The position numbers and the translations under genes are program-made. Shown piece by piece: positions 3,933 to 63,261 of a stretch of 64,000 nt of DNA. The stretch comes from Dictyostelium discoideum (taxonomy: Eukaryota): positions 992,001 through 1,056,000 of the forward strand of contig CM000154.2 of assembly GCA_000004695.1 (NCBI GenBank), read 5' to 3'. Each line of letters starts with the position of its first letter. Position 1 is the stretch's first letter. Below the pieces are notes generated by a model that did not search any database, was not told the DNA's origin, and was given only the letters and a program-made list of their open reading frames with translations.

Positions 3933-4656
3933 TCTATTTATCTTTTTATCTATTTATCTATATCTCTATTTATTTATTTATTTATTATTGTTTATTTATT
4001 TTATTAATATCACAATTTTTTTTTTAATTTATAAAGAAAATTTTTTTTTTTTTTTTTTTTTTTCAAAATTTTTTTTTTTTTATTTTAAAATCTTTACAAC
4101 AATTTCCAAAAGAGTAAAAGTTAAATTGGGAAAAAAAAAAAAAATTAATTAATGATTTTTTTGAATGGCTTAAATGATTTTGATTTACAGCAATTTCCAA
4201 AAGAGTAAAGTTAAATTGGGAAAAAAAAAAAAAAAAAAAAAATGATTTATAGTAAAAAATAAATAAACAATAATTGTGTTAAAATGGAAATATCAAAAAA
4301 GAAATAATTAAAAAAACGGTTAAAAAAAAAAAATTTGAAAAAGTTTGAAAAATTTTTTTTAAAAAAAAAAAAAAAAACTTTGATTTGTTTTGAAAACAAA
4401 TTATTTATTTTTTCAAAAAAAAAAAAATTAAACCAAAAAAAAAAATTTCAAAATCAAATTAAAATATGTGTATCATTAAAAACTTGGAATATAACTATTA
4501 AAATTTTTAAAAAATAAGTTAAACCCACTATTCAAAAAACAGACAAAAAGTCAAAAAAAAAAAAAAATAAAAATAAAAATTTATTAAATTAAATTAAATT
4601 AAAATAAAATAAAATAAAATAAAATAAAATAAATAAAATAAAATAAACTTTTAACC

Positions 4657-4833
4657 ATGATTGCAAACAAGGATAAAGTTTATATTTATGACGTTTATTC
4701 TTACTTTGAGGATATAGATTATGATAATATTAAAAATAATAAAAATAATAATAATAATAAAAGTGTATTAATAAATAGTAGTAACAACAACAATAACAAT
4801 AACAATAATAACAACAACAACAACAACAACAAC

Positions 4834-4921
<88 letters not shown>

Positions 4922-5440
4922 GTTATATTGAACCAAATTTATTGTCATATTATGAAGAAAAAGAAAGTGTAAATAGTAAAAGTGGTAATAATAATTATAA
5001 TAATAGTAAAAATAAGATTCAGCTTCAACATAGAGAAATTAAAATAGGATCATATATAAATACAGAGGTTAATTATAAACAGGTTAATAGTGATAGTAGT
5101 AATAGTAATAATAATAATAATAATAGTTATCAAGATAATTTACCAATTAGTAGTTATCAAGAAAATATAGATGATGATGGTGGGAGTAATGAATATGAAG
5201 AAGAAAGAGAAGAAGAACAATATGATATTGAACCAAATAGTAATATTATTAATAGTGATGCAAAAACTATAAATTACACACCTGATATTTATTCACCACC
5301 TGTAAATAATTCAAATCGGAGTAGTATAAATAATAATAATAATAATTTTAATGCAACACATCAACCAATAATTATTAATAATAATAATAATAATAATCAA
5401 CAACAAAAACAACAATATCATCAACAATATCATCATCATC

Positions 5441-5506
<66 letters not shown>

Positions 5507-8500
5507 ATCAACAATATCAACAACAATTATTAAATTCATCAAATTTAATATCACAATTAAATAGATATTGTGGAAAGAGTAAAGATTATAAAGGTAAAGA
5601 TTGGAATGGTGAATTTCAAACGTTATTAACTCAAGAGAATAGTGAACAAAAGTTTAGAAAATTATCAAATTTAGCAAAGGATTTTGTTTCAACTGCAAAA
5701 TCATATGCAACCGTTATTATCAATGAATTATGTGTACCATTGGAGATGAAAACTATTAAACCTGTTGAAATTGGTGGATTTGCAGGTGGATTGAAATATC
5801 ATTGTCATGGTATACTATTTAAGTTTGCAATGGATACATTGTTGAATAAGGAATGTTGGATGTATGGTGGTACCACCCAAGGTGGACCAAGGGATGACTT
5901 TGCAGCCAAAGCAGCATCTAACGAATTGAAAGGATTGGTTAGTTATTATATGGCGGGTGTTCCAGGATTGAATTACCCATTGATGGCATTAATCGATTAC
6001 AAAGGGTTCCGATTGATTGCACTGTCGGTATTGCCCATTTCAAGTGACACCATCAAGTATGGATCCTCCGATAGCGGTTCAACCGTGCACAATTCAATAC
6101 CCGACCTTAACGAGAAAATGAAAGAAGCAGGAAGGAAATTAAATTTAAAATCGCATAGAGTTGGCTCGATAGCCGACCAATCGAATATTCTCTCCTCACC
6201 TGGTGATATTGAAGCTCATTTAGGTGAGGATAAAAGATATTATGTAATCGACTTTAGTCGTACCTTCCCACCAGAATCAATTACAAAACAACCAAATCTA
6301 AATAAAAGAAGTATTTTCTATAATCTACTTAGACCAGAGTTTGTAAGTAAATGGAAAGTGCCACTTTGTAGTGACTCTTTCTCTGGTTGGCAAAGAAATG
6401 ACCCAAACAAATTAACACACAATAAAGAAGTTATTGAAGCAACTGAATATTTAGTTAATGATTTGGTGAAACAATGCGCTGCAAGATTAGATAGTCAAGA
6501 TAAAGATGGTATAGTTAAAACCAAGCAAAATCAACAAACCTCTCAAATTTCATCTGCATCATCAACCACTGTAAAACTTGAATTACCTTCAGATTTTAAT
6601 GAAATTAAAAATAATTTTGCAAAGAAATTCTTACCAATTTTTCAAAAAAGATTTGAAAATATCTCTTTAAATTTTCAAGATAGTCCAACAACTCAAAATG
6701 AATTTGAATCTTCAATAAATTATAATTTATTTAATTCAATTGATTCAACAACATCTTCTTCACAATCTTCAAATTTAAATAGTAATAATAGTAACAATAA
6801 TAATAATCAAAGTAATATTTCACCAACTACTAAATCTGTTAATAATACAACTACAACTACAACTACAACTACAACAACTACAACTACTACTGCAACCACT
6901 ACAAATACAAATGATAACAACACTAATAACAACACTAATAATAATAATAATAATAATACAATGAAATTTAAACCAATGAATCCAATAAAGAATGAAGTAC
7001 CACAACAATTATCAAGAATTATTGAAGAAATGCATAGAATGGGTATTAATATTAGACATATGGGTAGAGTTAGATTTTATTCAAAATCAAAAGCAATTAG
7101 AGATTTATTATTAATGGAGATGGCAGCAAGATCAATTAAAACAATCATTAGAAATGAAATGAGATTAAAAATGAAAGAAGAACAAGGTTCAGAAGAACCA
7201 TTCAAAGAGATTGTAATTGAAATCTTTAATTCAGTATTAGATATTCAATCACCACTTTGGAAAAGAATTTTAGAATCTATAAAATCAAAATATTTTATGG
7301 CATTTTTAAAATTAAATGATGATAATGATAATAGTGATAATAGTGATGATGATGATAATAATAATAATGATGATAGTAGTATAATTGATAATGATAGTGA
7401 AGAGAAACAACAACAACAACAATCATCATCACCACCAACACCACAAGATGATGATAATAAATCAATAATATCATCAGTTTATTCAATGGGTAGTAAAATG
7501 AAAGAAGACATTGATGAGAATTGGATGGAAGGTATTAATTTAAAGAACTTAATTGATAGATTACAATTGTTAAGTGGTATTTCATTTTCACAGATGGCAC
7601 AGTACGAATTTGCAAGGGATCCATTTAGATTTCAATTTGTTGATTCAGATATTCAAGAGATTAGTGCAAATGTGAAACATATGAATATCATTGATTATGC
7701 TGAGGGTATGGCATTGTCAATGTCATCGAAATCAAAATTTGGTAGAGATAGATTAAGATTATTGAAAATGTCTGCACACAAATTCCAAATCTCATTAAAA
7801 AGTAATCCAGATAATTTCAATTGTATGTGTCAATTAGGTAGAACATTAATTCAACAAGCAGAGACATTATCACAAATCACTGGTATGTTGGGTAAAAATC
7901 TTTATCTAAAGACATTGGAAGATGGAATTTTAAAATTTTTAGATGCTCTATCAATAGCTCCAAATTTTACACCTGCCCATTATGAATTGGCTCATGTTTA
8001 TATTTTATTAGCACAATATTATCAATTGAACCTATATAAATCTTCAAAATATTATAAAAATGCATCTCATCATTTTATGAAAGCAATTGAAACTTTTGAA
8101 ATTAATAAAAATAATTATTTAAATAATAGTGGTAATGGTATTGGTGGTAGTGGTGGTGGTGGTGGTAGTAGTGGAGATAATTGTAATAATGATTTCGAAT
8201 CTGATTACTATTTTTTAAAAAATCAAAAAAATCAAGAAGAAGAAGAGGAAGAAGAAGATAAAAATGAAGAAAAAGAAGAAGATATTTTAAATGGTAATAA
8301 AGTTAAAAAAACAATTATTAAAGATATTGAATTATTATTTAAAAAAGGTATTGAAGGTTCATCAAGTTATATTATTGGTGTTTCAATAATTTGTCAAGCA
8401 TTAGAGAAATTATTTCCAAATGATTCAGAGATTTTATTATTGTTGGGTAAATCTTATATTTATAGACCTTATTATGATGATGGTAGCGCCAATGGTAAAT

Positions 8501-11192
8501 CTAAAGCAAAAGATTATCAATATCAAAATAATAAAGAATTCTATTATAAAGAGGCAACAAATGATTTCCATAGAGTATTATTAATAAATATTGAATTAAA
8601 GCATAAAGTTTTTGAAGTTGCTCATGATATTTGGTTAAAGAGTAAAACTGGTAATCGTAAATTATATTATCCCGCTGCAAATATATTTAGATTACTAATT
8701 AAAGAGAATTTTTATCGTGAAAATAAAGTTTATTCAATGTATGCTGATTCATTATTAGAAATTTTAAAAATGGAATTTAATCCACCACCACAACAATCAT
8801 TACCTAAATCATCATCATCATCATCATCATCATCAACAAGAACAACATCAACACCATCACCATCGTCGCCATCACCATCGCCATCAATTGAAAATTCACC
8901 AATTTTAAAATCAACACCATCATTACCATTAACATCAATATCATCAATGACACCAACACCAATGATACAACCAACTTTACCATCTGGATATTTATCAGAA
9001 TCAACTATACTTTTTGAACATTTATTTACAATTGGTAATCAATATATAATTGATAAATTTGAATCATCAATGGTGAATCAACGTGAAGAAATTTGTGATT
9101 TTATAAAGATGTCAAATCATTCAAAATTAATAAAGAATAAGTTAATTGAAATTTCAAAAACAAAGAAATTAATTAAACTGGATTTAAGTAGGACATTAAT
9201 TGGTGATCAAGATTTAAATTCAGTTGGTGAAATATTTGGTAACCAGTTGGAGGATTTAGATCTTTCACATTGTCCTTTAATTAGTGATTTCGGAGTTTCA
9301 GAATTTCTTTCAACTTTTGGTTTAAAATCATTACAATCCTTATCATTGGCTGGTAATTTAATTGCTGATAAAACCATTCAAATCATTTCAAATTTTTGTC
9401 CACAAATTCAAAGATTAGATATTCACAATTGTACATTTATAAACTCTGAATCATTATCTTTACTTTGTCAAATTTCAAAATTAAAAAATTTAAATTTATC
9501 AAAATGTAAAGTTTCAAATGATAATATTTTATCATTTTATCAACCAATCCCACAACAATCTCAACAACAACCTCAACTTCAACAACCTCAACAAATTCAA
9601 TCACCACAACAACCAAATTTACAAAAACAATTATCATTTAATAATGGAATAACACAACAAATTCAATCACCACCACCACCACCACCACAACAACAACAAC
9701 AACCATATATTAATAATCAATTATTTGAATTAATAATTAGAAATCAAAGTAGAATATCAGATGAAGGATTTAAAAGATTTCAATCATGGCATTGTTTAAA
9801 GATTTTAGATTTATCAGGTTGTTCAAAAGTATCGGATAATATATTTTTAAAGTTACCAAAATGTTTAAATCTTGAACAATTGATATTGGAAGCATGTTAT
9901 AATTTAACCGATGTATCAGTTATTGGATTTTCACAACAAATGCCAAATCTTTGGAAACTTTCATTAAAAGGTTGTAAATTTATTACTGATAGATCAATCG
10001 ATAGTTTAACAAATAATTGTAAAAAGATTAAAGATTTGAAATTATCACGTTGTCATTCATTAACCAATGAATCAGTGGAATGGATTGCAAATAGAATCAA
10101 TTTAACATTGGAAAGAATCGATTTATCAATGTGTCCACAAATTGCAGAATCAGCATTAATTCAAATTTTAGAGAGATGTGATCAACTTTCTTCAATAAAC
10201 TTTTCAGAGAATCCAAAAGTTTCCGATGATTTAATTACGGTTATCAATGAAAGGTTCCCGAATCTTGTTGATCTTAGATTGGATTCTTGTGGTAAAATCT
10301 CATCGGATGGTTTAAATCTTTCAAATTTAATTCAATTGAAAACTTTATCAATTATAAAATCACAAATTTATCATAACTCATTATCATTGTTAACATGTAC
10401 TCTATTGAATTTAACAAGTTTATCTTTGAAAGGTTGTTTCCAGTTAACTGACACTTCCTTCTTTTCCATTGGTCAATTGAAACAATTGGAAAGTTTAGAT
10501 CTATCAGAAAACTATAGATTATTAGATAGTTCAATGGTTTACATTTGTAGAAATTTAACAAAGTTAAAACGTTTGGATATCTCCTCTTGTTTACGTTTAA
10601 CCACTAAAACCTTTTTCTTGATTGGCAAGTATCTAACTAAAATCAGTGAATTGGTCCTCTCAGGTTGTGGTAATCTCAATGATGCTTCTCTAATTTATAT
10701 CTCTGAGAATCTATTGGCAATTCAACAATTGGATATATCAGGTTGTCAAATGATCACTGATAAAGGTATAGCTTCTTTGGCAAATAATCAAGTTCATCTT
10801 CAAGTGGTATCTTTAAAGGATTGTAATTCAATCTCTCAACAATCAATTGATATACTTAAAACTAAATGTCCCCTTTTTAAATTGGTACGTTTATCTTTAC
10901 ATTCTTTACCATTGGTTGGCGAATTAATGAATTCTCCAACAACTGATATCCTAAAACCAATCAATTTCAATGTTGGTACAACTGAAGAATGGAAACAAAT
11001 CTCTTTAGAAAAAAGAAAAAAAGAAATGGAAAGAAAAGAAAAAGAAAAACAAAAAGAAAAAGAAAAAGCTTTAGCTCCAAAATATTTAGATTTTAATAAT
11101 GAAAAATTAACTTATCATAAAATTTTAAATTATAAAAATGATAATTTAAAATTAGATCCGATGCATTTAGAAGTAAGTTTTAATTTTTTTTT

Positions 11193-11232
<40 letters not shown>

Positions 11233-11385
11233 AATTCTAATTCTAATTCATTAATTTATTTATTATTATAGAAATATCTTAAAGAAGATGAATTTATTAG
11301 AATATTCCAAGTTAAAATTGAAAATTTTAATTTATTACCATTATGGCAAAGAAATGAAAGAAAGAGGTTAAATGGATTATTTTAA
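4657..11385 (+). CDS. Large (~2.2 kaa) CLU central-domain protein with N-terminal poly-Asn/poly-Gln, central TPR-like helices and C-terminal cysteine-containing leucine-rich repeats; exons 4657-11172 and 11272-11385
   Basis: The ATG is at 4657. CLU central-domain motifs are present: 'IDYKGFRLIALSVLPI', 'KYGSSDSGSTV' and 'HLGEDKRYYVIDFSRTFPPE'. LRR_cc units appear as 'LKILDLSGCSKVSD', 'LEQLILEACYNLTD', 'LKLSRCHSLTN', 'IDLSMCPQIAE' and 'LRLDSCGKISS'. Donor 'gaa|GTAAGT' is at 11173 and acceptor 'tattatAG' at 11271. The short last exon ends '…KRLNGLF*'. Confidence 0.75.
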
Positions 11386-19025: not shown

Positions 19026-22000
19026 ATGGAGGCATTTAGAAATATTAAAAATAAGTTTGCAAAACATATGGCCGCTAGGAAAATTAGAGTACTATGGGCC
19101 GATTATTTAAAAGTTGCAGACATAAAGTAGGTACTAAACAATTTTCATCTCTTTCTTTCATTTTTATATCTCATCCAATCTCCTTTCATAAACAATACTA
19201 TATTTAAATCATATCATACACATAACACTTTAAATTTATAATGTTATAATAACTAATATTATAAATTTTTTTTTTTTTTTTTTTTTTAAAAACATTATAA
19301 AGAGATTCACATTTAATGGTACAAAAATTGAATAAATTTTTAGATTCATTTCAAGAAACATATAAAGAGTTGGTAGATTCAGGTCAAATTAATTCATTCG
19401 ATTTAGATAAATTCTTTGGTGATTGTTCAGATATCTTGGTATCATTATTAGATTTAGTTGAAAGAGAGTCGTCATCATCATCATCGTCTTCTACTTCAAC
19501 AGCAATAGTAAAACATACAAATAAAGATGAATCAATAGATTATATAGTTGAAATTATAAATAAATCATTAGGTGTAGCTGAATTGATATTACATGTAAGT
19601 GGTAGTTGTAGTAGTGGTATATATATATATATATATATATGCTGATAATATTTAATACTAATATTAAATAAAATATAGGATGAAAAATATAGATTGGTAG
19701 TTAAAGAAACACCAAATTTAATAAATAGAATACTTACATTATTGGATACATTAAGTACAAGTGAGAATAAAAAAGTATTATTAAGAGTTATTAGTGCAGT
19801 TGGTGAGAATACAGATAATAAATTAGAGATTGGTAGATTGGAAGGATTTAAGAAATTATTGGTTTTAATGCATAACGATAAGGAGTTAACTCAAGAGATT
19901 TTAAAAACTATTAAACACTTTTTAGATATAAAACAAACATTACCTTCAGAGGAGGAATTAATAAACAATATGAAGAAATCATTATCAATGTCTTCAATTA
20001 GTGAATTTGCAAGATTAAAAATTGGTTCTGTAGTCTCTGAAGGTTTTAAAGTTATCGTTGGTGAATTTCAAAAAGTTTTCTCACCAAATGATGAAATTCA
20101 TCCTGCTATAAAACAATTAATTGGTGAACAACCATTGTATGTATATAATAATATATTACAAATACAAAAGTTATCTCATATTAACATTTTTTATTTTATT
20201 TTATTTTATTTTTTAAAATAATATAATAGTAATAGAGGTATTGATATGACAGAAGAAAGTTCATTCATCCCATCGCGTGAATCTATTGAATTTGCTTTAA
20301 TAGAATTACAACATAGTGAATTGGTTAAAGAGAATAGTATTAATAATAATAATAATAATAACAATAGTGTTATTGAAGAAATCGACAATACTATTACACA
20401 ATTACCATCACCACCTATAGCGGTATCATTACCAAATCCTAGCATTCCAATCCCAATTTTAAATGGTAATAATGATAGTAATAATAATAATAATATTTAT
20501 TCCGAATCTTCTAGTAATTTAGAAAATAATTCAAATGAACTACAACAGCAACAAGAAGATAATAATAATAGTTTAATAACAGAAGAAGAATTATTAAAAG
20601 ATTTTATGCGTGTTCAAGGTGCATTAGTATCATTAACAAATTCAATTAAAGAGGCAGCACAAACTGTACAATTAGATTTATTGGAAACCATTAGTAAATT
20701 GTTATATAATAATCAAAAGAATCAAATTGAATTTAGAAATATGGATGGTTACTCTATATTGATTCATTTATTCGATAATCATTTAGAAGATTTCGGCACA
20801 ATTGAAGGCAGAGAATTCTTGGAGAATTGTTTCAATTTGTTTTTCGTTATAATCATTGATGGTAATAAATCAAAGAGAATTACAAATATGGATGCTTTAG
20901 ATCTATTGTTTCAAATTCTATTAAATTCAAATCAAACAGAAGTTCAATTACAATCTTTAACATGTATTCAAGATTTAATTTCAATTAATCCAATCAATAT
21001 TATTAATATTAAATCTATAAATGGTATTGATAAATTATTTCAATTATTATTAATTTTAGAAAAGGTAATTATTTAAAATTATTATTATTATTATTTTTTT
21101 TATTATTACTTTTTTTTTATTTTTTTTATATGTATTTAACAGTCGCTCAGCTTTTGGAATCTAATAGTCCAATAAGGAAGGTTAAATACTAGATTAATAA
21201 TTTATTTATAATCATTATCTATACTACTATGATTATAAATAAAATTGTGGTTAGAATATAATCATAATAATAATTTTTTTAATATATATTTTCTTTTTAA
21301 TTTAAAATATATTTTAATTATTATTTTCCATACATTACTTTTATTAAATATTATTATATAAATTTTATTTTATTAAAACTATTTTTTACTAAAATAACTT
21401 TTTTTTTTTTTTTTTTTTATAATAATTAATAAAGAAAAAAGAAAATGAAAAAGAGAAAAATAAAGAAAATGTAGAACAAAGAAATGAAAATATAGAAGAA
21501 GAAGCAGGATTTGAATCATATCAACGTCAACAACAACAACAAACAGATAATTTAGTTGAAAAAGATTTAACAAAGTTATTATTAGCAACAAGTGAATTAA
21601 TACTTTATATTGGTGTTTTATTTAGTAAATATGATACATACGTATTCGATAAGTATATATCATTATTGGAGAATTCAAATGTACAACAATCACATACATT
21701 AAATTGTTTATTACTTCAATCATCTATAACCATCTTATCGGATACAATCTATCATCAATCACTACTATCAACTAAAGAGGGTTTATTACCAAACTTTGTC
21801 GATTCAATTAGATCAATTCCATCACAATTTCAACAATTATTAATAGAAGAACAAAATCATCAAAAATTACAAGATGAACAATTTGAAAGACAAGATTATT
21901 TATTAAATCAAAGAGTAGTACAAAATGGTATTGTTAATAATAATAATAATAATAATAACAATAATAATAATAATAATAATGAAGAGAAAGAAATAAAAAT

Positions 22001-25000
22001 AGAACAAGATGATAATAATTATAATAATGAAGAAGAGGAAGAGGAAGAAGAAGAAGAAGAAGAAGCGGAAGAAGCTGAAGAAGAATATAGAATTAGAATT
22101 GATATGGAAGAGAAAACAAACTATTTAATTCAAAAACAAACTAGAATCACTGAAAAGGCTTTATTGGTTTTAGAGTTAATTATTATGTATATCCATTATT
22201 CATCCGATACTTTATTTAATGACTTTTTAATCAAATATGATGGTTTCAAATTATTTGTAACATTATTAAAACAAACAAATATCGATAATGATTTATTCGA
22301 TCTTTGTATTTGGAGTATGTGCAAAATAATCTCTCGAGAAGGTAAACAGTTTCAATTATTTTTAAATAAAAATACTCCTCTTACTCCTTCAACACTATCA
22401 CCATCACCATCACCATCTTCTACCACAACTACAACTACAACTTCAACTACGACTACAACCACCACAACATCACCTTCACCATCATCTTCAACTACAACAA
22501 AAACAGCAACCACTTCAATTAATTGGAATCAAATAATTAATAATGATATGAATATTTTAATTCAGTTATTAGAAGATAATCAAATATCAGACCAAAAGAA
22601 AGAATCAATATGTTATTGTATTGCAGAGTGGTTACATCAAATAGACTCTAATGTTGCATCATCATCATCATCATCATCAACAGGTGATAAAAAGGATTCA
22701 TCAAAGGTTTTGGAACAAAAACAATTTTCAAATTTATTGAAAATTAAATTCCAAGAGTTAGGTTTATTACATATTCTAATTAACATTATTAAAAAGAAGA
22801 GAACAGAGGAATCTCAATCATTGGTTTATGCATCATTGGTTGCAATTTGTGAATTATGTTTTGCTTGTGAAGAAAATAAACGTGTAATTGATCAATTGGG
22901 TTATATGTCTTTATCATCATTAGTAAAGAATACAAGTGTACAAATCGATGATTATCTATATCAATTATTGGTAGAATTAACTATGAATAAACCTGTGGTA
23001 ATAAGATATGAAACTCAATATCTTAAAGAATTCTTCTCACCAAATCTTTATAAAATCATTACAAATATTTTATCACCTCAACCACAATTCACTTTTATTT
23101 TACCACACTCAAAGAAACATCATGATATTTCTTCTTATAACACTTCAGTTTATCAACAACAACAACATCATCAACAACAACAACAACAACAACATCATAA
23201 TCAACAAGCACAATTATATCAACAACAACAGCAGCAAATTCAACAAGCACAATTATATCAACAACAACAATTATATCATCAACAACAACAACAACTTTAT
23301 CAGCAACAATTATATTTACAACAACAACAACAACAGCAACATTTATATCAACATCAAATTCAACATCAACAATACCAATATGGTGATGAAATTAATTTAG
23401 GAGATGATAATATTGATTTTCCAAAAGATTCTCCAATATCTAGTCCATCAACAACACCAGTTGCTTCTTTATCAAACTCATTCAATGGTTACCAAGGTAT
23501 TCATTTATATCAACAATATCAATTACAACAACAACAGCAATTACAACAGTTACAACCAAGTTTATCGCATCATTTACAACAAAGAGTTGGAATTGTAAGA
23601 GTACCAAGTTTTAAAAATTTATTCACAGTAACAAGAAGAAATAGTATTGGTTCTTGGGCTGGTTCTTTTGATGATTTATATTCACAACAACATTCTCATC
23701 AAATACCAACATCATCACAACAACAACAACCACAACCACAACAATCACCAAGAGATAATGCCAGTGATGGTGGTAATGGTACAAATAGTATTTCAAAGAA
23801 TTCATCACATCCACAATTAGCAGGTTTAGAGGAAGAGAAAGAAACCATCTATTCTTACACTCTTTTGGGTAGATCAAGAATTAGATCTCCTGATGCAGCA
23901 TTGATGTTGGTTGATTTATTACCACAATGTCCACTAATTTCCCAACAATTGAATTTGGTATTGTTAATGAAAATTTTAGAATCAAATCCACAAAATAAAA
24001 AAATGTTATGTTCATCACAAGGTTTGAAATATTTATTAAATCTCTCTCATCAATGTCCAGAAGAATTACAATCCTATTATAGTCGTGTCATTGTTATTTT
24101 AGGTTTATATGATATTTCACCAGCTGAAGTTAGACTATTATTTGATTTGGCTTGTTTCCCATCATTTGATACTCATCCACATTTAAATCAATTACAACAG
24201 CAACAACCAACAACATTACATCAAAGTTCAAATTCAACTGGTAGTAATGGTAAAAGAGAAAAGAATAGAAAATATGAATTACAAATGCAAGTTTTATATA
24301 TTATTGGCACTTTAACAGAGAGAAAAGCACCACCACTTTATTTTAATTTCGATGGATTCGATAGTTGTATTAAGACAGGACCAATCGATAAATTCCCTTC
24401 CGCTAGAAATGGTTATACATTTAGTTGTTGGATTCGTACAAATTATTTCCTTAGTGATGAATCTGGTTTATTCAGTTGGCAAGATCATTCAAATATCCAA
24501 CATAATCCACATAGTATCTTTGAGGTTTATTTCAAATCTTTACCATTGGGCAAATCATCAGAAACTAAACGTTATCTTTGTATTCAAACTAGAAATTATC
24601 CATCACCACCAGAAACTTTTTCATTCGATAAATTTGCTTTCTCTGAATGTGGTAGTTGGAATCACGTTGTTTTAACTCATTCAAAACAAAAAATAACCTT
24701 ATATGTCAATGGTAAATTCATTCAAAATTATAGTACACTTAATTATCCAAAATCAATAACAAAAGATAAACCAATCTCTGGTTGGATTGGTAAAAGAATT
24801 TATTCAGAAAATACTACCAACACCGCCACAAATAACACTATTAATGGTACAACTCCTCAGTTTTGCGCTAATACAAGTGGTAATGTTGCAGAAAGAGGTT
24901 ATTTTTGTGGTTCAATGGGTACAATTCACTTTTTCGATGGAATTTGGGACGCAAATGCTTGTCACAAAGTTTGTAGTAGAGGTAATCTTTACAATAGTAC

Positions 25001-25180
25001 CTATAAATCATTAGGAGTTGATAATAAAGAGTTTTTAGTTATAAAACCTGCTCCAATCCAATACCAAACTTCAACCACTACACTCAGTAATAGTTTTAAT
25101 AGTAGTCTTCTTAATAGTGAACCTCCACCATCATTAAGTTTCTCAATGTCTGGAGATAACTTTTTCCAACAACCATCACC

Positions 25181-25250
<70 letters not shown>

Positions 25251-27350
25251 CCAACAGGATCAAGTAATACAACATCACCAGTTTCAATTTCTAATACTAT
25301 TAATAGCACATTAACAATTGATAGTCAATCAATTTCAAATTCTCCATCAACTCCGTCGGGTAAATCTCTACCAACAACGACAACCGCAACAACAGCAACA
25401 GCATCAATAACATCACAAAATCAAAGTGAAAATTCACCATCTTCATCACCATCAATTAATAGAACTCAATCATTTTCACAAGAAAATGATGATATTACTA
25501 GTGGAAATAATAATTTAACATTATCAAATGGTGGTGAATTATTTAAATCAATACCAATTATTAATGTACCAAACGAAACTCAAGGTGCTGTTATTGAATT
25601 TATTGGTGGTGTCAATGTTCATCAAACAAGATGTCTTAAAGATGTAATTAAAGAAGTTGGTGGTATTCATTTATGTTTCCCATTTTTAGATATGGAACCA
25701 GCTCAACAAGTTGCTGGTTTAAGAATCTTATCTGGTCTATTGAACAAGAGTGAATCCAATAAAGCACAATTTAGAGAATTGAATGGTTTTGCTATCCTCT
25801 ACTATCTATTAAATAGATTCTCTGTATCAAATATCTCAAGTCCATATAGTGAGCTATCAATGGAAACATTTGAAATCATTTTCGATCTTTTATTAGATGG
25901 TATGAATAATACAGGATCCGATGTTAAACATCTTTGGAGTAATGATTGTTTAACTTTAATCTTGGATTTACTCCAATTCTGTAGTGAAGATCTTCAATTA
26001 CATGTTCTTAAATATTTAAATACAATGCTATTAAATTCACCTGATACTCTTAAACTTTGGATCACTCAATCCGATAATGAAAATCAAAATCAATCAAATC
26101 CACATTTAACTCCAAGTGTTACTGGTATAACTAGTGGTACTGATTTATTAAATGAGCATCAACATCAACAACAATTACAACAACAACAACAACAACAACA
26201 ACTTTCAAGTAGTAATAATAATGCAATTTCCTCAAATACTATATCCCCACCTTCATCCATTTTATCATCAACTTCAACAACAACTACAACAAACATTACA
26301 CAATTAACAACTACAATCAATTCAAATACGACAACTCAAGTATTATTATCATCATCTTCCTCAACTTCAGTTACAAATTCAACATCAAGTAATCTACCAG
26401 CATTTTTAAATACTGTAAACATTTCCAGATTAAATTATTTATTGGATATGGCAATGAAGCTATCCACAGATTCAACCTTTTTGTTTGGTATTATTAGAAA
26501 GATCCTTCCATCAATTGGTGCTGAAGATGTTGAATCAATTTTCGAATTTTTAACTGAAAACAAAGAAGGCTACTTTGAAAAGATTGGGACAAAATCAAAG
26601 ATATTGGAATTGGTTTATGAAGAGATGAGAAAATGTCCAACTCTAGTCGACCATCTAAGATCGATTGGTGGCTTCAATCTTGTATTCTCTTTAATTGAAA
26701 TACCAAGTGAAGAAATTCATATATTGACAATTAAATTAATTGGTCTATTATTGCATTCCAATAATAAAGCAGCTCTATTGTTTAGAAAGAATGGTGGATT
26801 CGATGTTTTAGCATCAATGATTTCAAATTATTCAATACCATCAGCTTCAGTTTGTAGAACCCTTTTACATCTATTGGTTGATCAATATAAATTCGATCCA
26901 AAATGTGTTCCACCAGAAACTAAACAAAGATCATTATCTTGGATATCTTTAGATTTCTTTTCACGTGATAAAAGTTCAGATTCTCTCTCAACTCTAGCTT
27001 CTTCAACAAATGATCTTTCAGAACCAGAGGAATCCCAATCATCATCAACAACAACAACAACCACAAACACAGATGAAGTATTAATTACAGGTGATAAAAC
27101 TATTGTATACCCAGAGGCTTTACATTCACTATTTACCATTATTCATAGTTATTATTTATTACCAATTGATGTAATTAGATTTGAAGAAATTCAAAAAATT
27201 CAAGTCACTCTCTATACTGAAATTGAACAACTTTTTGATAATACAAATATGGATATTTTATGGAATCAACCTTGGTTTGAATGGGTTTATCAGTTAATTG
27301 ATTTTTCAAACTTTGTAAATAATAATAATAATAATAATAATAATACTGTA

Positions 27351-27405
<55 letters not shown>

Positions 27406-28812
27406 CAACTAATAATAATAATAATAATAATAATAATAGTATTAATAATAATAACAATTTAAATGGTAGTGGTCAAAATATTAATACCAACCTTTCACCA
27501 TTCCAATTCTCAAAATCAAATATTGCTTATGTTAAATTATTATCAGTTTGTAAAAAATTGGTACTTTATGAATTAACCAAAAAACAATCAAAAATATTAA
27601 AATTAAAAGGTATGTTTAAAAAAAAAAAATAATAATATTGTAAAAACCATTCAAGTTTGAGCACTTTTCAAAATTTGAAAATTATGCATATTAATTTTAT
27701 ATGAGCTCCCATATAAAAATATTTGAAATTACAAAAAGTGCGCAAATTTGGATGGTTTTCACAATAATAATAATTTAAAAAATAGTACTAATATTAAAAA
27801 AATTAAAAAAAAATTTATAGAAATTTGTATAGATAATGAAGAATTTTATGTTGATATTGTAGATTCAGTTATTGATTATTTTGAACAAAATTCATATGTT
27901 TTACCAGATAATTCAACAGAATTAATAAAGAATTTGGTACAATTCTTTAAATCATTGGATGATTTAACAGTTCCATATCAAGTTTCAATGAGAATTATTG
28001 ATTTAGTTAATTCGATTGCATTCCAAAATACACCAGCCATTAGATTGCAAATGAAATCCAATGGTTTGGTTGAAATTAGAGATAACCTAATCATTCTATT
28101 ATTAGGAAATAGTAATACAAGAGCAGACTTTTTTAGTAAATTTGATTTCGAGTGTGTAGCTGATCAAAAAGCATTTAGAGATTCGGGTGGTTTATTATAT
28201 CTTTTACAATTTTTCCATCAATCCTATGGATCATTCGATAGACAAATGGAGATTTATCATGTATTAAAGAATGTAATGAGCTCAAGTAGTGAAGAGAATA
28301 GAAAAATCATTTCAAATATTTTAGAAGATCAAGTTACTATTCAAATGTTTTTTGGTGAAGATTTATTTGGTAAAAACAACAACAACAACAACACTAATAA
28401 CAATAGCAATAACAACAAAAAGAATCAAACTCCACCTACTTTAATTAATGATAATGATTTCAATTTCGTTGAATGGTTTAACTCTGAAGAACTATCATCA
28501 AAGAGATCAGATTTTAAGAATAGAATTGAAAAAGTGTTGGCACCAATTGAAAATAAATTCAATAATCAATTAGATAAACTTATGAAATTAAAAGAAAAGA
28601 GAATTAAACAACGTAGAGAAAAGATTTTCAAACAACAATCTGTAATCTCAAAACTATTACATGAAACAAATGAAAAACGTAGAATTCGTTCAAATAAAAT
28701 GAATTCACTTTATCTTGCAAAATCTCAATTAATTCCTTTTAAATCTCAAGAACGTTTAAAACTTGGTAAAGAAAGAGCATCACGTTTATCCCCTGTTTCA
28801 ATTTTAAATTAA
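19026..28812 (+). CDS. Neurobeachin/LRBA (Lvs)-like giant protein containing ARM-like helices, a ConA-like lectin domain and the DUF4704-like region, but no BEACH or WD40 region; proposed exons 19026-19126 (tentative), 19303/19316-19594, 19679-20136, 20230-21064, 21435-27609, 27821-28812
   Basis: ConA-like lectin-domain motifs are shared with LRBA/neurobeachin: 'FNFDGFDSCIKTGPIDKFPSARNGYTFSCWIRT' (compare FFNFPG…IAKWPYQNGFTFHTWLR), 'WNHVVLTHSKQKITLYVNGK', 'RGYFCGSMGTIHFFDG' and 'FIGGVNVHQTRCLKD…IHLCFPFLD'. Splice sites are 'cat|GTAAGT'/'atatAG', 'tt|GTATGT'/'aatAG', 'aag|GTAATT'/'aataaAG', 'g|GTATGT'/'tttatAG', all keeping the frame. The conservative start is the ATG at 19316. An upstream ATG at 19026 would add the exon 'MEAFRNIKNKFAKHMAARKIRVLWADYLKVADI'. 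The stop codon is TAA at 28810-28812. Confidence 0.65.
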
Positions 28813-28827
28813 TTTTAAAATCAATAA

Positions 28828-28828
<1 letters not shown>

Positions 28829-29150: not shown

Positions 29151-30191
29151 TTAAAAGATTTCATCTCGGATTGGTGGTAATTGGAGGAAACTATCATTGT
29201 TTATAAAATGAGACTCTACCGATGGTACATTATGGAATAATGGTGATGATAAAATTGGTGACTGAGAGGTTGGTGTTAAAGAGAATGGTGATGCTGATGA
29301 TGATGATGAAAGTGATGATTTGAATAAAACATCACAACTTGGATAATTATTTTTATATTTGTTACAAATTGGAGGTGGTAATGAAATTGGCGTATTGGTT
29401 TCTATATTACCATTGTAACTATTATTATTATTATTATTATTATTATTGTTGTTATTAATATTATTAATGTTATTGAAATTTGGATGTGGTGTAGGTATTG
29501 AAACTAATTTCATACCATTTTTAATATTATTATTTTGAATTTGATTTTGATTTTGATTTTGATTTTGATTTTGATTATTTTGATTATTTAATAATAATTG
29601 AATTTGTTGTTGTTGTTGTTGAATTTGTTGTTGTTGTTGTTGGATTTGTTGTTGTTGAATAAGGAGTTGATCTTGTTTTTCTTTTTCAGAATCTTGGATT
29701 TGTTTTTCTAATCTTTTTTGTAATTGTCTTTTATGGAGTCTCTGTTCAAGTTCAAGTTTATATCCAACATTTGGGGAATTTAAATCTTGGATTGGTATCA
29801 AAGAAACTGGTGATAAAACTGGTGAACTACCATTTTGTGGAACTTGATATTGAGAAACTTTTAAAACTGGACTATTATTACCATTACTATTTGATGGAAC
29901 AACAGATGACTTGGTATGAGTTTTTTTTACTGTCACTTTACCAACCATTGGAGGAGAACTTGGAGAACTTGGAGAACTTGGAGAACTTGATAAATTAATT
30001 GAGTCATTTTGTAATAATTGTTGATTATTTTTATGTTTTAATTTTGGACTGCATGCTCTTGGTGATCCACTTTTTGGACTTGATGTTTTTGGACTACCAT
30101 TTTTTGAACTTCCTTTTTGGCCACATAATTTTGGACTTGATGGATCAGTCATGATAAAATCCCAAGTTGGCACTTTAAAATTTAAATTCAT
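29151..30191 (-). CDS. Hypothetical Ser/Pro/Gln/Asn-rich protein (346 aa, single exon)
   Basis: The ATG is at 30189-30191. The protein has SP-rich tracts ('SPKTSSPKSGSPRACSPK', 'SSPSSPSSPSSPP'), a central coiled-coil-like 'LELEQRLHKRQLQKRLEKQIQDSEKEKQDQ', and (QNQN)n and poly-Asn runs. It is probably a real low-complexity gene, but I have no homologue to anchor it. Confidence 0.45.
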   Translation of the reverse strand: MNLNFKVPTWDFIMTDPSSPKLCGQKGSSKNGSPKTSSPKSGSPRACSPKLKHKNNQQLLQNDSINLSSSPSSPSSPSSPPMVGKVTVKKTHTKSSVVPSNSNGNNSPVLKVSQYQVPQNGSSPVLSPVSLIPIQDLNSPNVGYKLELEQRLHKRQLQKRLEKQIQDSEKEKQDQLLIQQQQIQQQQQQIQQQQQQIQLLLNNQNNQNQNQNQNQNQIQNNNIKNGMKLVSIPTPHPNFNNINNINNNNNNNNNNNNSYNGNIETNTPISLPPPICNKYKNNYPSCDVLFKSSLSSSSSASPFSLTPTSQSPILSSPLFHNVPSVESHFINNDSFLQLPPIRDEIF

Positions 30192-34956: not shown

Positions 34957-36573
<1,617 letters not shown>

Positions 36574-38841: not shown

Positions 38842-40427
<1,586 letters not shown>

Positions 40428-44935: not shown

Positions 44936-45347
44936 TATATTTATAAAAAATTGATTACTTACTCTTTTTAGCGATTTCTCTAATTGGAGAAGATTCACCA
45001 ACAGATAAAATAAAACTAACAGTTTTATCAGTTAATGAAGACATTTTATTACTGAAACAAAAACTGTAGACACCAGCAAAACTTGAACGAAGTGTTTTAG
45101 TACCTTCACTTTCACGTTGACCAGAATATACAATTCTTTTATCTGGTGAAATGATAGTGAAATCAATATCATTGAAACCACCTTGAATAACTTGAAACAT
45201 TGCTGTGAATGATAAATCTACACCAATTTCTTCATAAATACATTCTTCAACTTTTGCTGAAACTTTGAATGAAAATGATTCAACAATTGAATTACTAGCA
45301 ATACATAATAATGCAATAACTAATAATAATAATTTATTATTCATCAT
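44458..45347 (-). CDS. p24/emp24/gp25L (TMED) cargo-receptor family protein; exons 45347-44963, 44790-44683, 44582-44458
   Basis: A signal peptide and GOLD domain are present ('[74 protein letters not shown]'). The coiled-coil exon reads '[35 protein letters not shown]'. The TM/tail exon '[41 protein letters not shown]' carries the p24 hallmark 'TNSRVLWWS' and a cytosolic FF…K(R)xV tail. Confidence 0.8.
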
Positions 45348-45644
45348 TCTTTTTTTTGTTTTTTATTTATTTATTTCCAACAAAATATGATGATTTGGGA
45401 AAAAAAAAAAAAAAAAAAAAAAATTAAAATTGAAAAAAAAATTAAAATTGAAAAAAAAATTTAAAAAAAAAAATTAAAAAAAAAAAAAAATAAAAAAAAA
45501 TAAAAATTTAAAAAAAAAAAAAATAATAAAATTTTTGAACTTCTACTGACGTGTTGGTTTTTTTTTTTTCCAGTTTTAATTTAAATATTTTTATATATTT
45601 ATTTATTTATTTATATATATATATTTTTATATGGGTTTAAAATT

Positions 45645-56761: not shown

Positions 56762-57711
56762 TTAATCATCTTGATTCACAGGTGATTTTGTGTAAACAAC
56801 TGAACCTGAATCAAAACCACCCTCTTCATCATCTTCATCATCTTCATCTTCTTCATCTTCTTCGTCACTACTTTCTTGTTGTTGTCGTCTTTTATTATAT
56901 TTTAATTTCATACTTTCAAACTTTTCAACTAAAGTTGAACCCTTAAATACAACCGAACCTGAATCAAAACCACCCTCTTCAATATCGTCATCGTCATCAT
57001 CATCATTTTTAATGATTGAACCATTCTTGGAAAATACAACAGTACCAGAACTTGAAGTTTTACTACTATTATTATTATTGTTATTATAAATAAATGTACC
57101 ACCATTATTTGAGGTATCTTCAGTTCCATCCTCTCTCATAACGGTGGCTCTTTGAGTGATTGTATTAATTTTAAGTAAAGTTCCTTTTTGAAGTCCAGCT
57201 GAAGAAACAGATGAACCGTGTTGTCTTTCATCACCACCGCCATTAACATCATCATAATCATCACCCTCTTCTGCCTCTTCTGCTTCTTCTTCCTCTGCTT
57301 TCTTTCTCCTATATTCTTTCATGGTTGGTATACATTGTTCTACCATTTCACTGATGGTTGGTTGTGAATGTTCTTTTCCTTTCTTTATGAAAGGATGATT
57401 CAATAAATCCACTGCTGATGGTCTTTTATCGGCCTCTTTATTTAAACAAACTGAAATGAAATCATTAAATTCTGGTGACCAATTACCAGGTACCTCTAAT
57501 GTTGGTGCTTGTCTAAATGGAATAACAAATATAACTTTAACTGGATTTAAATTAAATAATGGTGGTTTTGATTCTGCCATCTCTATCGCTGTTATACCTA
57601 AAGACCAAATATCTGCTTTACTATCATATCCATTCGATCCTTTTGGTGGTGATATAACTTCTGGTGACATCCAATATCTTTTTTTTTTTTTTTTTTTTTA
57701 ATTATCACATG

Positions 57712-57804
<93 letters not shown>

Positions 57805-58608
57805 TAATAATAATAATAATAATAATAGTAATAATAATGATAATAATAATATTAATATAGATATAAATATTAGTATTTATTATTTTATAATTTATTAATT
57901 AATTATAAAAGATATTAGTAATATATTAATAATAAAATAAAATTAAAAAATACTTACGGAGAACCAACAACAGTTTTTTGTTTAAAACCAGTATTTACAA
58001 GGATTGCAGAAACACCAAAATCAGCCAATTTAGCTTGACCCAGTTTATTTACCAAGACATTACCAGCTTTAATATCACGATGTAAAATTTTATTTGAATG
58101 AAGATATACAAGACCCTCTACTATTTGATAGAGTATGGCAGCGATTTGTGCCTCTGTAAGTGTTATGGAACACATTTGCATTATATCTAAAATACTACCA
58201 CCATCACAATATTCCATAACAATCATTAGATTATTCTCTTTTATATAACAACCATGGTATTTGACAATGTATGGACAACGAACTGTATTCTTTAAAATTG
58301 TAATCTCTTTCTTTAATGAAGAATTCTCTTCTCCTTCCATCTCTAAAAATTTAATTGCCACAACTTCATTATTAACTGTATTTATACACGTACATACAAC
58401 TCCAAATGATCTGATCATAATAATTTATATATATATACTTATTAATATTTGATAATATATATTTTATTTTATTTTATTTTATTTTTTTATTTTTTTTATT
58501 TATATTATATATATATTACCCTTGACCAATAACTTCTAAAACTCTAAATAATTGTTCTGGATCTTCTTCTGAGATTTCAGATTTCATAGTTTTATCTACA
58601 TTATCCAT
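56762..58608 (-). CDS. STE20-family Ser/Thr protein kinase of the MST/Hippo (GCK-II) type; exons 58608-58520, 58410-57958, 57677-56762
   Basis: Exon 1 'MDNVDKTMKSEISEEDPEQLFRVLEVIGQG' plus exon 2 'SFGVVCTC…VAIKF' form the glycine loop. 'HRDIKAGNVLV' and 'AKLADFGVS' are present. Exon 3 reads '(P)YWMSPEVI…ADIWSLGITAIEMAESKPP…IFVIP' (compare MST1 'ADIWSLGITAIEMAEGKPPY…IFMIP'). Donors are 'gg|GTAATA' and 'cc|GTAAGT'; acceptors are 'gatcAG' and 'aaaaAG'; both are in phase. The acidic tail has the duplicated motif 'EEGGFDSGSVV'. Confidence 0.85.
57715..57852. repeat. (TAA)n microsatellite in kinase intron 2
   Basis: It is read directly between the acceptor at 57678 and the donor at 57957. Confidence 0.9.
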
Positions 58609-59211: not shown

Positions 59212-59488
59212 TTATTCTTGCGATGGTTGATTATCTTGAGTTATTGTGTCGTTAGTATTATTGTCGACAGTTTCGTCAGGTGTTGAGGTTGTTGTTTGAT
59301 CTTCAGGTTTTACTCTTATTGGAGGTCTTTTTGTGATTTTAGTGGTTGGAGTTAAAGATGGTGGTAATATATTTGATGGAATTGGTGTTTGGGCAGTTTT
59401 TAATCTTAATCTTTTCTTTGGTTGGTTTGGTGTCGTGACGGTGGTTGTTGTTGGAATTGGAGTTGGAGTGGTTGGAATTGTAGTATTG

Positions 59489-59553
<65 letters not shown>

Positions 59554-62500
59554 GTTAGTAGTGGTGGTGGTTGATTCACCTCCAATAGTTGAGGCAGTAG
59601 TATTTGGAGTTGAAGATGGTGAGCTTGAAATTGATTGACTTTCGTTGGTATTATTATTTTCATCAATCATTTGATTTTCATCATCTTGGTTGATTGAATC
59701 ATCGATTTCACCTTCTTCATCCAACTTATCGGTATCATTAGAATCATCTATCTCACCTTCATCATCAGAGATTGTGATTGCAGTTGTTGAACCATCAACC
59801 ATCTTTTGTTTCTTTGATGTATGTACTGATTCTTCCAATTCTTCAGCATTTTCATCATCATCTATTATATTTGAATCATCATTTGTAAGTATTGGTGATT
59901 CTGGTTGAATATCAGTGGTTGAAGTTGTTCCAACTGATTCAGTATTGGTTGCAGGTGTAATTTGAGTTGGTGTACTGGTAGTAGCGATAGTTGGAGTAAA
60001 TAATGATGATTGTTGACCAAATATAGATGGTTGTGAAGAGAAAATACTTGGTGTTGGTGTTATGGTGGCAGTGGTTGAGATTGATTGTGGTGAAAGTACA
60101 GGGGTTTGTTTAAAGATTGCTGGGGTTGGGGTAGTTGGAATGGCAGGTGAAGTAACAGTGGTAGTAGTTGGAGTAGTGGTTGTGGTAGTATTTGCAACAT
60201 TTGACATATTACTTAAAAATGAAGACATTCCAGGTGTTGGTTGCCTTTTTATGACACGTTTTTTTGGTTGTTCAACTGGTACAGGTGGTGGGATTGGTGT
60301 TGCTATATTAGTGGCGGTTGCTGGTATTATTGTAGTTGAGGTTGTAGTGGTTGGAGTTATAGGGGTTGGAGTAACAGGTGGTGCAAGTATATTTGTAGTG
60401 GTTGGAGTAGTTGGAGTTGAAACAACAGTTGGAGTGGTATTATTATTATTATTATTAATATTATTGGCATTATTTAAAGCTGAAGCTTTTTTCATTGATT
60501 CAAAAACTTTTAATTTTGATTTTGCTTCATCAGTTAATTTTTTATAATCATCAGCTAGTTTCTTATAATCCTCAGCTAATTTTCTAGTATCTTCTAATTG
60601 TTTCTTTAATGCTTCAATTTCTTCATTATTTGCCTGTTGTTGTTGAATTTGTTGTTTATTGGCTTGTTTATTTGCGTTGGCGATTTGAATTTTCTTTCTT
60701 AATTCTTGATTCTCTTTAAGAGTTTGTTCATTGGTTGCTGTGTTTGAATCCAATTGTTGTTTTGTGGTTGAAAATAATTCCTTTTGTTGAGTTAACGATT
60801 GATCCAATTCTAATTTATCTTTTTTGAATTTTACAGCTTCTTCTTTCCAATGTTTGGTATGTTTCTTTAAGTCTTCATATTGTTTCTTGTTATCCTCCAA
60901 TTGTTTCTTCAAGTCCTCCAATTGTTTCTTCAAATCCTCCAATTGTTGTGTTAATTCTTGATTCTCACGAATTGTAGTTTCATTGGTTTCCAAAAGTTTT
61001 TGATGTACTTCAGGATCGATGGATTGATATTTATTTAATAATTTCTGAACTTTACCAGACCAATTGGTGATTTCAATCTTTTGGGCCTCGATTTCATTGT
61101 GAAGTATTTGATTCTCTGCTAAAAGTTTCTTATTGGATTCGGTTAGAGGTAAGAGATGATCTTGAGATTGTTTTAATTTCTCTTGTAATTCTTGAACTTG
61201 AGCACCCAATTTTCTAGTTTCATCCTTTAACATGATATTACTCTCTTTGAATAGATTCATTTGTTCTAATTGAGCCAACACCTCTTGATGTTTTCTAGTG
61301 CTAACGGTAAGAGTACGCATATTCTCTTGTTCTTCTTGAAGTTTCTTTGTGACGGTTTCAATTGCTTTTTGATTGGCAGCGATGGTTGATTTCAAACGAA
61401 TATTCTCTTGTTGCAATGATTCATTCTTAACTTCGGTGATCTTTTGTTCTCTTGCTTGAACTTGAACCAATTCCTTGAGATTATTAATTTCATCCTCACT
61501 AACTTGAACCAAACCATTACCAACACTTGATGATGATGATAATTGACTATATCTATCAATTTGTTGAGTTTGTTGATTAATATTCTCAATTTGACTATGT
61601 AATAAATTATTATGATGCTTAAGATCCTTGAGACGTTCTTCCAATTCTTGAATTTGTTGTTTCAACAATTGCTCTTGTTGAATCCAAGATTGTTTGGCTT
61701 GTTCCAATTCTTGAGAGTTTGAATCAATCTTTATTTGCATTTGGTTAATGGTTTTTCTAGCTTCTACCAAATCATCTCTAAGCTTTGGAAGTACTTTAAT
61801 ATCCTCAGCATGTAACACAACCTCACGTTCATAGTTTTCAGTTGCTTTTCTACAAAGTTGATGTTGTAATTTAGCTTCATCCAATGCCAATTGTTGATCT
61901 TTTGTCAATTGTTGAATCTTTTCATAGAGTTGTTGTTTTTCAGCCAAAATTGAATCCTTCTCTGCAATGATTGAATTAATATCCTTTTGATGGCTTGAAG
62001 AGAAGTTTTCTAATTTCTCCAATTTAATTTGTTGTTCTTTAATAGTTTCTTGACTTTTAGCTAATTCTGCTTGTGCATCTTTTAATCTTTCCTCTAATTC
62101 TACCTTTGTTTTTGTATATTCTTCTTTTAATTGTGATAAATCATTTTCATTTGAAATTGCAATACTCTTATAATGAACAATATTATCTTTTTCTTGTGCT
62201 AATAAATCCTTTAAACTTTCAATTTCAGATTTAGCAAGTGATAAATCTAAATTATCTTGTTGTTGTTGTTGTTGTTGTTGTAGTTTTTGTTGTTGATTAT
62301 TATTATTATTATTATTAGTTGATAAAGTAGAAGAAGTAGTTGGTGAAATTGTTAATTGATTTGATTGAGTTCTTTCAATTATAGTATTATATCTTAATTC
62401 TGATTGATTTAATTGATTTTCTAAAAATGTAATCTTTTGTAGTAAAGTTTGTTCAGAAACTTTTAATTTAATGATAGATTCTTTAAGATCTGATAATTCT

Positions 62501-63225
62501 TTTTCTTTCTTTTCGAAACGTTCACGAGATTCATTGATTTGATGAGTCATTGCTATTGAGGTTTCTTTATGTTGTTGTTTCTCTTGATCCAATTCTTTCT
62601 TTAATTGAATACGTTGAGTTTCCAAAAGAGTTAAATCATTCTCAATTCTTCTTCTTAGTTCTGTCTCTGAGGATTCTTTTGAGGCATTCAATTGATTAAC
62701 TTTATCCAATAGATTTTCAATTGAAAGTTTCTCCAATGATAAAGTTTTGTTCATTTCAATTAAACGTTCTTCAGATGCACGAATTAATTGATTCTCACCT
62801 TTAATATTTGATAAACGTAGTTCAGCTTGTGATTTAAATTCCTCTGAACGTGAAAGTTGTGAATTTAAATTCTCAATGGATTGTTGATGTCTAACAACGG
62901 CATCCATTAATTCTTGATTCTTTTTACGATATTGTTCCAAATCTTGTGATTGATTCTTAACACTATCGGTTGAAATTTGTAATCTCTCCTTAAAGATTGT
63001 ATTTTCACTTTGAATTTGTGAGATTTGAATCTTTAATGAAGTGTTTTGTTCTCTCATTTGTTCAATCTTTCCTAATAATTCCTTATCACTAATTGATCTA
63101 TCCTTCATAACTTGTTCATAATCTTTTTGAAGTAATTGATATGATTGTTTAATCTTTTCTAATTCTTGTGTTAAAATTTCATTTGATTGTTGTTGTTGAA
63201 TTAATGTTGAAGATGATAATAATGA

Positions 63226-63261
<36 letters not shown>

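Follow-up and report, generated by a model that had tools for sequence, protein, structure and literature searches.

Within a window of 64 kb from the Dictyostelium discoideum contig CM000154.2, the whole stretch of DNA analyzed here and the frame of all coordinates given below, the plus strand carries at 19026–28812 a gene of 6 exons and 5 introns whose product of 2,948 residues resembles the N-terminal two-thirds of the BEACH-domain proteins (BDCPs). Typical members of this class are NBEA, LRBA, NBEAL1/2, LYST, and WDFY3/4 as well as LvsA–E of Dictyostelium. The gene opens with an ATG at 19026–19028 and closes with a TAA at 28810–28812. An AATAAA on the same strand (28823–28828), 11 nt past the stop, might serve as poly(A) signal, and the 3' boundary is marked by a convergent open reading frame (ORF) on the minus strand (29151–30191; 346 residues, low complexity) that lies outside the gene and 338 bp from the stop. 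Pfam matched nothing in this ORF at curated cut-offs and gave only weak scores for Ribosomal_S17e (18.2 bits) and Nop25 (18.6 bits). The initial annotation of the locus had placed the coordinates, the TAA, and the convergent minus-strand ORF correctly, and all peptide strings quoted in it are found in the translation; its estimate of a product of ca. 2.9 kaa also stands, but the one ORF that it assumed has to be replaced by six exons.

The window is AT-rich (GC content ca. 20%) and its coding regions carry poly-N and poly-Q tracts, both typical traits of dictyostelid DNA. All six exons lie on the plus strand, and the introns between them are all of the GT..AG type (5/5), 84 to 370 nt long and of 10% to 18% GC, with intron 4 at 21065–21434 (370 nt, 11% GC) and the other four at 84 to 211 nt. 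Exon 1 (19026–19126) runs from Met1 to the first two bases of codon 34 and meets a GTAGGT donor at 19127, and exon 2 (19303–19594) is framed by an acceptor AG at 19301–19302 and a GTAAGT donor at 19595. Exon 3 (19679–20136) encodes an N-terminal ARM-like solenoid that continues in exon 4 (20236–21064) with ARM-like repeats including 'LETISKLLYNNQKNQIEFRNMDGYSILIHLF'; an alternative acceptor at 20230 would lengthen exon 4 by 2 residues. Exon 5 (21435–27609; 2,058 codons, GTATGT donor at 27610) comprises the middle solenoid, a ConA-like domain, and DUF4704 and is broken up by poly-Q/N/S/T inserts, while exon 6 (27821–28812), behind a TTATAG acceptor at 27815–27820, encodes a family-specific C-terminal module and ends in the TAA.

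This model is matched by relatives from other organisms, which we label P0001 and so forth; P0001 is a dictyostelid-like protein from EukProt, P0002 is PPL_09493 of Heterostelium album, P0003 is a Piromyces protein, and P0005 comes from Basidiobolus. The relatives align unbroken across the junctions of exons 1/2, 2/3, and 5/6 (junctions marked by a slash): 'KVADI/KDSHL' pairs with 'KVAEI/KDPNL' of P0002 at the first, 'ELIL/HDEKYRLVV' with 'EVIL/KDEKYRLVV' at the second ('KDEKYRLVV' in P0005 and P0010), and 'KILKLK/EICIDNEEFYVD' with 'KIIKVK/EVCIDFEEFYVH' of P0001 at the last. The junctions of exons 3/4 and 4/5 fall into variable linkers with conserved sequence on both flanks. In blastp comparisons with P0002, P0005, and P0010, residues 1–1122 and 2583–2940 of the model were covered, and tblastn of the full-length Basidiobolus relative against the window returned a single collinear series from 19313 to 28785, with 45% identity over 20561–20980 in exon 4. 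Because 2,948 codons stay open across five canonical introns and the junctions are matched in orthologues, we regard the gene as intact. As a candidate name we considered SpdA (PMC4981364), which is an unrelated protein of 920 aa and was rejected.

The wider family was collected with a profile that starts at the ConA-like domain, extends to the C-terminus, and was built on an alignment into which the exons of the window gene had been entered as separate rows. An exhaustive search of 1.84 billion representative proteins with this profile retrieved 562 proteins at E ≤ 1e-3, among them 109 at E ≤ 1e-30. No BDCP chain emerged from PDB sequence searches with the family profile, even at E = 10. Word-indexed homology searches had been far less productive, giving 3 matches with the full query, where low-complexity words filled the candidate pool, and 4 once low complexity was stripped from it; a word-indexed profile search with the tail alignment returned nothing at all, again a limit of the tool when faced with low-complexity words and not a matter of biology. 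Named members are found in Dictyostelia (Heterostelium album PPL_09493), in early-diverging fungi (Basidiobolus meristosporus A0A1Y1YU59 of the Zoopagomycota, hypothetical proteins of Mortierella and Actinomortierella of the Mucoromycota, and a hypothetical protein of Piromyces of the Neocallimastigomycota), in Rhizaria (Plasmodiophora brassicae A0A0G4IMC4), and in Discoba with the heterolobosean Pharyngomonas kirbyi (EP00761_P005904) and the jakobid Andalucia godoyi (A0A8K0AI55). They are collinear with the window protein from Met1 to the tail, at an identity of ca. 50% for the dictyostelid members and of 30% to 34% for Basidiobolus and P0010. The spread over such distant lineages suggests that the family arose before these supergroups diverged and is probably very old.

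The N-terminal two-thirds of the protein were scanned with Pfam both at full length and as blocks freed of low-complexity sequence. In the N-terminal solenoid, the scans gave a weak ARM_ARMC5 match at 19718–20047 (E = 2e-4, below cut-off), a model that is matched in 5 of 18 full-length family members, and a weak Arm_4 match at 20654–20776, both on the plus strand like all further domains. Directly upstream of the ConA-like domain, a solenoid block at 23871–24149 corresponds to positions 306–399 of the 423 in the Pfam model Neurobeachin (PF20425), scoring 16.8 bits (E = 0.0033) and thus below the cut-off of 23.1; the orthologue P0001 reaches 31.1 bits at the homologous place. The ConA-like domain itself (24342–25043), a beta-sandwich of the LamG/pentraxin type with a disordered low-complexity loop, matches Laminin_G_3 (PF13385) with 37.5 bits (cut-off 27.6). 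An AlphaFold2 model of this block, made from its own sequence and a 13-row family alignment, predicts a beta-sandwich of ca. 14 strands with a predicted template modeling score (pTM) of 0.76 and a predicted local distance difference test score (pLDDT) of 78. Foldseek matched the model to 396 PDB entries at E ≤ 1e-3, headed by the LG module of PAPP-A, pentraxins, the Hc-N domain of botulinum neurotoxin (BoNT), and laminin LG, so that the ConA-like fold is confirmed at the level of the predicted structure. A long poly-Q/S/T/N insert (24810–24890, plus strand) sits in a loop of this sandwich, one of two such inserts inside conserved domains of the protein.

Further downstream lies DUF4704 (PF15787), the Pfam model for the alpha-solenoid of neurobeachin and other BDCPs, in two parts: the first at 25599–26045, which contains 'FIGGVNVHQTRCLKD...HLCFPFLD', covers profile positions 11–168 of 486 (32.8 bits), and the second at 26493–26891 covers positions 227–361 (30.4 bits, or 28.5 bits in the scan of the whole exon ORF; cut-off 22.9 for all). 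They are split by an insert at 26073–26402 (poly-Q and S/T/N-rich, masked by the entropy filter) that is missing from the alignment rows of P0001, P0002, and P0003. The full-length scan found Laminin_G_3 only (33 bits), because the low-complexity inserts cost it the DUF4704 match, and such inserts inside domains can easily mislead anyone annotating domains in the D. discoideum genome. The order along the gene, with a weak PF20425 followed by Laminin_G_3 and the two successive stretches of DUF4704, is that of BDCPs. This bears out the initial annotation, which had read a BEACH-family N-terminal architecture from the letters and had proposed the Pfam scan as a check; by contrast, the 'GLLYLLQFFHQS' block that it took for DUF4704-like lies past the DUF4704 match, in exon 6, where no Pfam model applies.

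Could these matches be no more than generic solenoid similarity in an ARM-repeat protein that has nothing to do with BDCPs and carries a ConA-like domain by chance? The scores of the window protein are modest (30 to 33 bits) with PF20425 under its cut-off, and the family profile retrieved only the 562 proteins mentioned above and not the many clusters of BDCPs at E ≤ 1e-3. Similarly, a Foldseek search of the PDB with the predicted structure of exon 6 gave generic ARM/HEAT matches only (best E > 1) and no PH, BEACH, or propeller fold. Chance is nevertheless hard to reconcile with three BDCP-derived models that are collinear and in BDCP order around the ConA-like domain, or with two DUF4704 pieces that continue each other along the profile. 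In addition, generic ARM models score below DUF4704 on the same blocks, and the relatives do better than the window protein itself, with 68.7 bits on DUF4704 in P0001 and 65.8 bits in P0005 and passing matches in 14 of the 18 full-length members (Laminin_G_3 in 12). We therefore consider a purely generic resemblance very improbable and conclude that the window protein shares the N-terminal module of BDCPs, a relation that is read from Pfam models.

What makes this protein unusual is how it ends. Pfam matched neither Beach (PF02138) nor PH_BEACH (PF14844) nor WD40, whether it was given the exon pieces, the entire protein, or the separate blocks, and a six-frame search of the 64 kb detected no hallmark motif of BEACH domains (NF[ED]YL, QYPxFPW, WIDLxFG, and others) and no WD-like repeat. 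When all 124 stop-to-stop ORFs of at least 70 aa in the window were scanned with Pfam, the same three domains were absent, while CLU, TPR/Mlp, PPR, kinase, Dnmt2-like methylase, emp24, and other domains were found, so that the initial claim of a 64-kb window free of PH-BEACH and WD40 is upheld. Across the family, Beach, PH_BEACH, and WD40 are found in 0/18 full-length members, and the three closest relatives (P0001, P0002, and P0003), which all stop at the homologous point, carry none of them either. The end of the profile was reached by 69 of the best 153 family proteins, and what remains beyond it has a median of 26 residues, with fewer than 100 residues in 57 and a maximum of 544. Where a PH-BEACH-WD40 region requires more than 700 residues, the window protein offers just 11 after 'KLGKER', its last conserved tail motif (28777–28812).

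A few members have additions around the conserved module, namely P0015/P0152 (3,758 aa) and one other member of the alignment; one protein, labeled 'C2H2 Zn-finger protein' by JGI, carries the C-terminal extension of 544 aa, and another has a Lipase_3 match. Among the members examined, the family thus gains extra domains but never BEACH.

Instead of PH-BEACH-WD40, the gene ends with a module of its own that is encoded by exon 6, for which an all-helical structure is predicted by AlphaFold2 (pLDDT 83.8, pTM 0.67) and in which no Pfam family is matched. We describe it with residue numbers counted within exon 6 and with a tail alignment of 17 members over the last ca. 330 residues. The module would begin with an extension of the solenoid of ca. 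180 aa and ca. 11 helices (27838–28353; residues 6–177, pLDDT ca. 90) that is marked across the alignment by the motifs IN.LA..N...R..MK..GLFD.RD and FSFE..A.Q..FRD..G.L.LL...EENR. Residues R74, K78, and R86 are invariant in the 17 members and D87, W218, and R311 invariant or nearly so, and all of these are present in the window protein. A disordered poly-N linker whose length varies across the family (28366–28446; residues 182–208, pLDDT < 50) leads to a short helix with a near-invariant F..W motif ('FNFVEWFNS' at 28450–28479, residues 210–219), the tryptophan of which, W218, is kept in at least 90% of the members. The remainder, nearly to the C-terminus, is predicted to form a single continuous, basic, and amphipathic helix of ca. 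100 residues (28486–28788; residues 222–322, pLDDT 86–96), which recurs in 17/17 members at a length of 97 to 103 aa and a net charge of +5 to +17. Its conserved hydrophobic positions have a periodicity peaking at ca. 3.67, and no single heptad register could be made out (mean z of 0.03 against shuffles, 17 members), so that a canonical coiled coil was rejected as the default interpretation for lack of a consistent register.

The very end of the tail also bears on the idea of an artefact, that is, a mis-assembly, truncated pseudogene, or annotation gap behind which the true gene would reach a BEACH-WD40 region through further splicing or on a different contig. The region is AT-rich, repeat-rich, and hard to assemble, and the window protein stops 11 residues past 'KLGKER' without the terminal W motif kept by most members, seen in the alignment as R..R..G...W at the tail end; P0001 and P0002 run on for at least ca. 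20 residues beyond this motif ('W[DE][YF]FKQKLWDS'), of which no remnant was found when we looked for it downstream of the stop. However, the same homologous stop is shared by the 69 representatives, which come from many lineages, all 2,948 codons are open and the family-invariant residues kept, an AATAAA follows the stop with the convergent gene just behind, no frame of the window has coding potential for BEACH or WD40, and neither domain is found in the 18 members. In the independent genome assembly of Heterostelium, the orthologue ends alike with a convergent gene right behind it that is unrelated to the convergent ORF of the window, without synteny; the same ending next to a different neighbor implies that the ending is a property of the gene rather than of its genomic setting. 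With a conserved ending and no coding potential beyond it, mis-assembly, pseudogene, and hidden BEACH exons are essentially excluded, and an artefact of any of these kinds appears extremely improbable. The stop is no truncation, recent fission, or mis-assembly but a native BEACH-less ending. Nor is there support for the decoy paralogue, gene fission, or mis-assembly that had initially been offered as explanations, given that the ending is conserved in dictyostelids, early-diverging fungi, Rhizaria, and Discoba.

Another alternative is that the family represents one half of a split BDCP, either the N-terminal product of an ancient gene fission or an ancestral state before fusion, that acts in trans with a small PH-BEACH-WD40 protein (FAN/NSMAF or LvsF-like) to reconstitute a full BDCP. 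The modules are clearly separable, as human NSMAF (FAN) consists of PH-BEACH-WD40 without a solenoid or ConA-like domain (PMC11554844), and the proteins of the family stop about where DUF4704 ends and add a long helix that might be a docking element. Yet there is no BEACH gene in the 64 kb or near the Heterostelium orthologue, and a protein with its own solenoid extension and tail does not end cleanly at a domain boundary, making this scenario unlikely. An NSMAF/FAN-type protein as trans partner of the window protein is a hypothesis that would also fit into a broader evolutionary picture to which we assign a small chance: The family could be a free-standing ancestral solenoid/ConA module that was later fused with PH-BEACH-WD40 into BDCPs, or an equally old fission product, that works with a small BEACH protein through its basic helix as a two-component BDCP. 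Amoebae, early-diverging fungi, Rhizaria, and Discoba would have kept this system, and animals, plants, and Dikarya would have lost it.

Our preferred interpretation, to which we assign a probability of about 80%, is that the six exons make up a real and intact gene for a dictyostelid protein from an old and unnamed eukaryotic family that shares the N-terminal two-thirds of typical BDCPs, ends natively in its own module, and probably functions as a cytosolic scaffold. Our confidence is high for the identity of the gene and low for the mechanism. The protein may be a large cytosolic scaffold that would engage partners through the surfaces of its solenoid and ConA-like domain, as presumed for the N-terminal regions of BDCPs, and whose basic helix of conserved length might anchor it to acidic membranes, tie it to a partner, or let it self-associate. 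In BDCPs, the cytosolic tails of cargo are bound by PH-BEACH (Pankiv et al. 2024; PMC11554844); the tail of CTLA4 is bound by PH-BEACH, whereas the N-terminal solenoid/ConA fragment of NBEAL2 did not bind it in the published assay (PMC11554844). Since it lacks PH-BEACH, the window protein could not bind cargo tails in this manner. Rather than being a cargo adaptor, it more likely plays a part in endomembrane organization alongside or in support of BDCPs. Several points weigh against our interpretation as a whole: The homology to BDCPs is seen through Pfam models on which the window protein scores modestly, one of the three under its cut-off; an exact match to the 2,948-aa model was not found in the protein collections searched; the roles of the protein as scaffold and of its basic helix are deduced from anatomy; and, with no canonical heptad pattern in the terminal helix, dimerization is no better supported than binding to a membrane or partner.

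In the literature searched, we found no natural BEACH-less family of this kind, only work on BDCPs and engineered truncations. The suggestion of an undescribed architecture thus holds for the literature, but not for the databases, where members already exist under hypothetical or automatic labels such as the UniProt name 'DUF4704 domain-containing protein'. Hence, the gene falls into a family that exists in databases but has not been described, and whose architecture, a new variation on that of BDCPs, should come as a fair surprise to specialists in the field. The N-terminal two-thirds of LYST, LRBA, NBEA, and NBEAL2 carry many disease mutations, and to the best of our knowledge no molecular function has been assigned to this part of BEACH proteins. 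A natural and conserved protein composed of the N-terminal module only makes it possible to study the function of this module without BEACH-WD40, and to do so in a tractable dictyostelid. The family also bears on how the architecture of BDCPs came about, by fusion or by fission, and it cautions annotators that a DUF4704 or ConA-like match without BEACH should not be counted as a truncated gene model.

Several other genes share the window. On the plus strand, an ORF of 2,204 aa at 4642–11268 carries CLU (205 bits), eIF3_p135, and TPR matches together with a C-terminal LRR as an unusual addition and is much longer than CluA (ca. 1,300 aa), and a weak P2X-receptor-like ORF (19 bits, below cut-off) lies at 39108–39938. 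The minus strand encodes a Dnmt2-like C5 cytosine DNA methyltransferase in two exons at 34960–36120 (PF00145, 73 and 41 bits), an emp24/GOLD cargo-receptor exon at 44958–45362 (83 bits), and a protein kinase domain over two exons at 56765–58424 (Pkinase, 134 and 57 bits). At 59215–63999, a TPR/Mlp-type nuclear-basket nucleoporin (TPR_MLP1_2, 101 bits) runs off the window end, also on the minus strand.

Among known systems, the window protein belongs to the unnamed DUF4704 family, with which it shares the tail motifs and the position of the stop, though it is longer than the other members due to its poly-Q/N/S/T inserts and does not have their usual terminal W motif. With typical BDCPs, it has in common the giant size and a long alpha-solenoid of the ARM/HEAT type in which a ConA-like beta-sandwich is embedded ahead of DUF4704, that is, PF20425, PF13385, and PF15787 in the same order; it differs from them in having no PH_BEACH, Beach, or WD40 propeller and, in their place, the solenoid extension and the basic helix of ca. 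100 residues. The small BDCP NSMAF/FAN, which has no domain in common with the window protein, is the complementary half and shows that the modules of BDCPs do occur separately.

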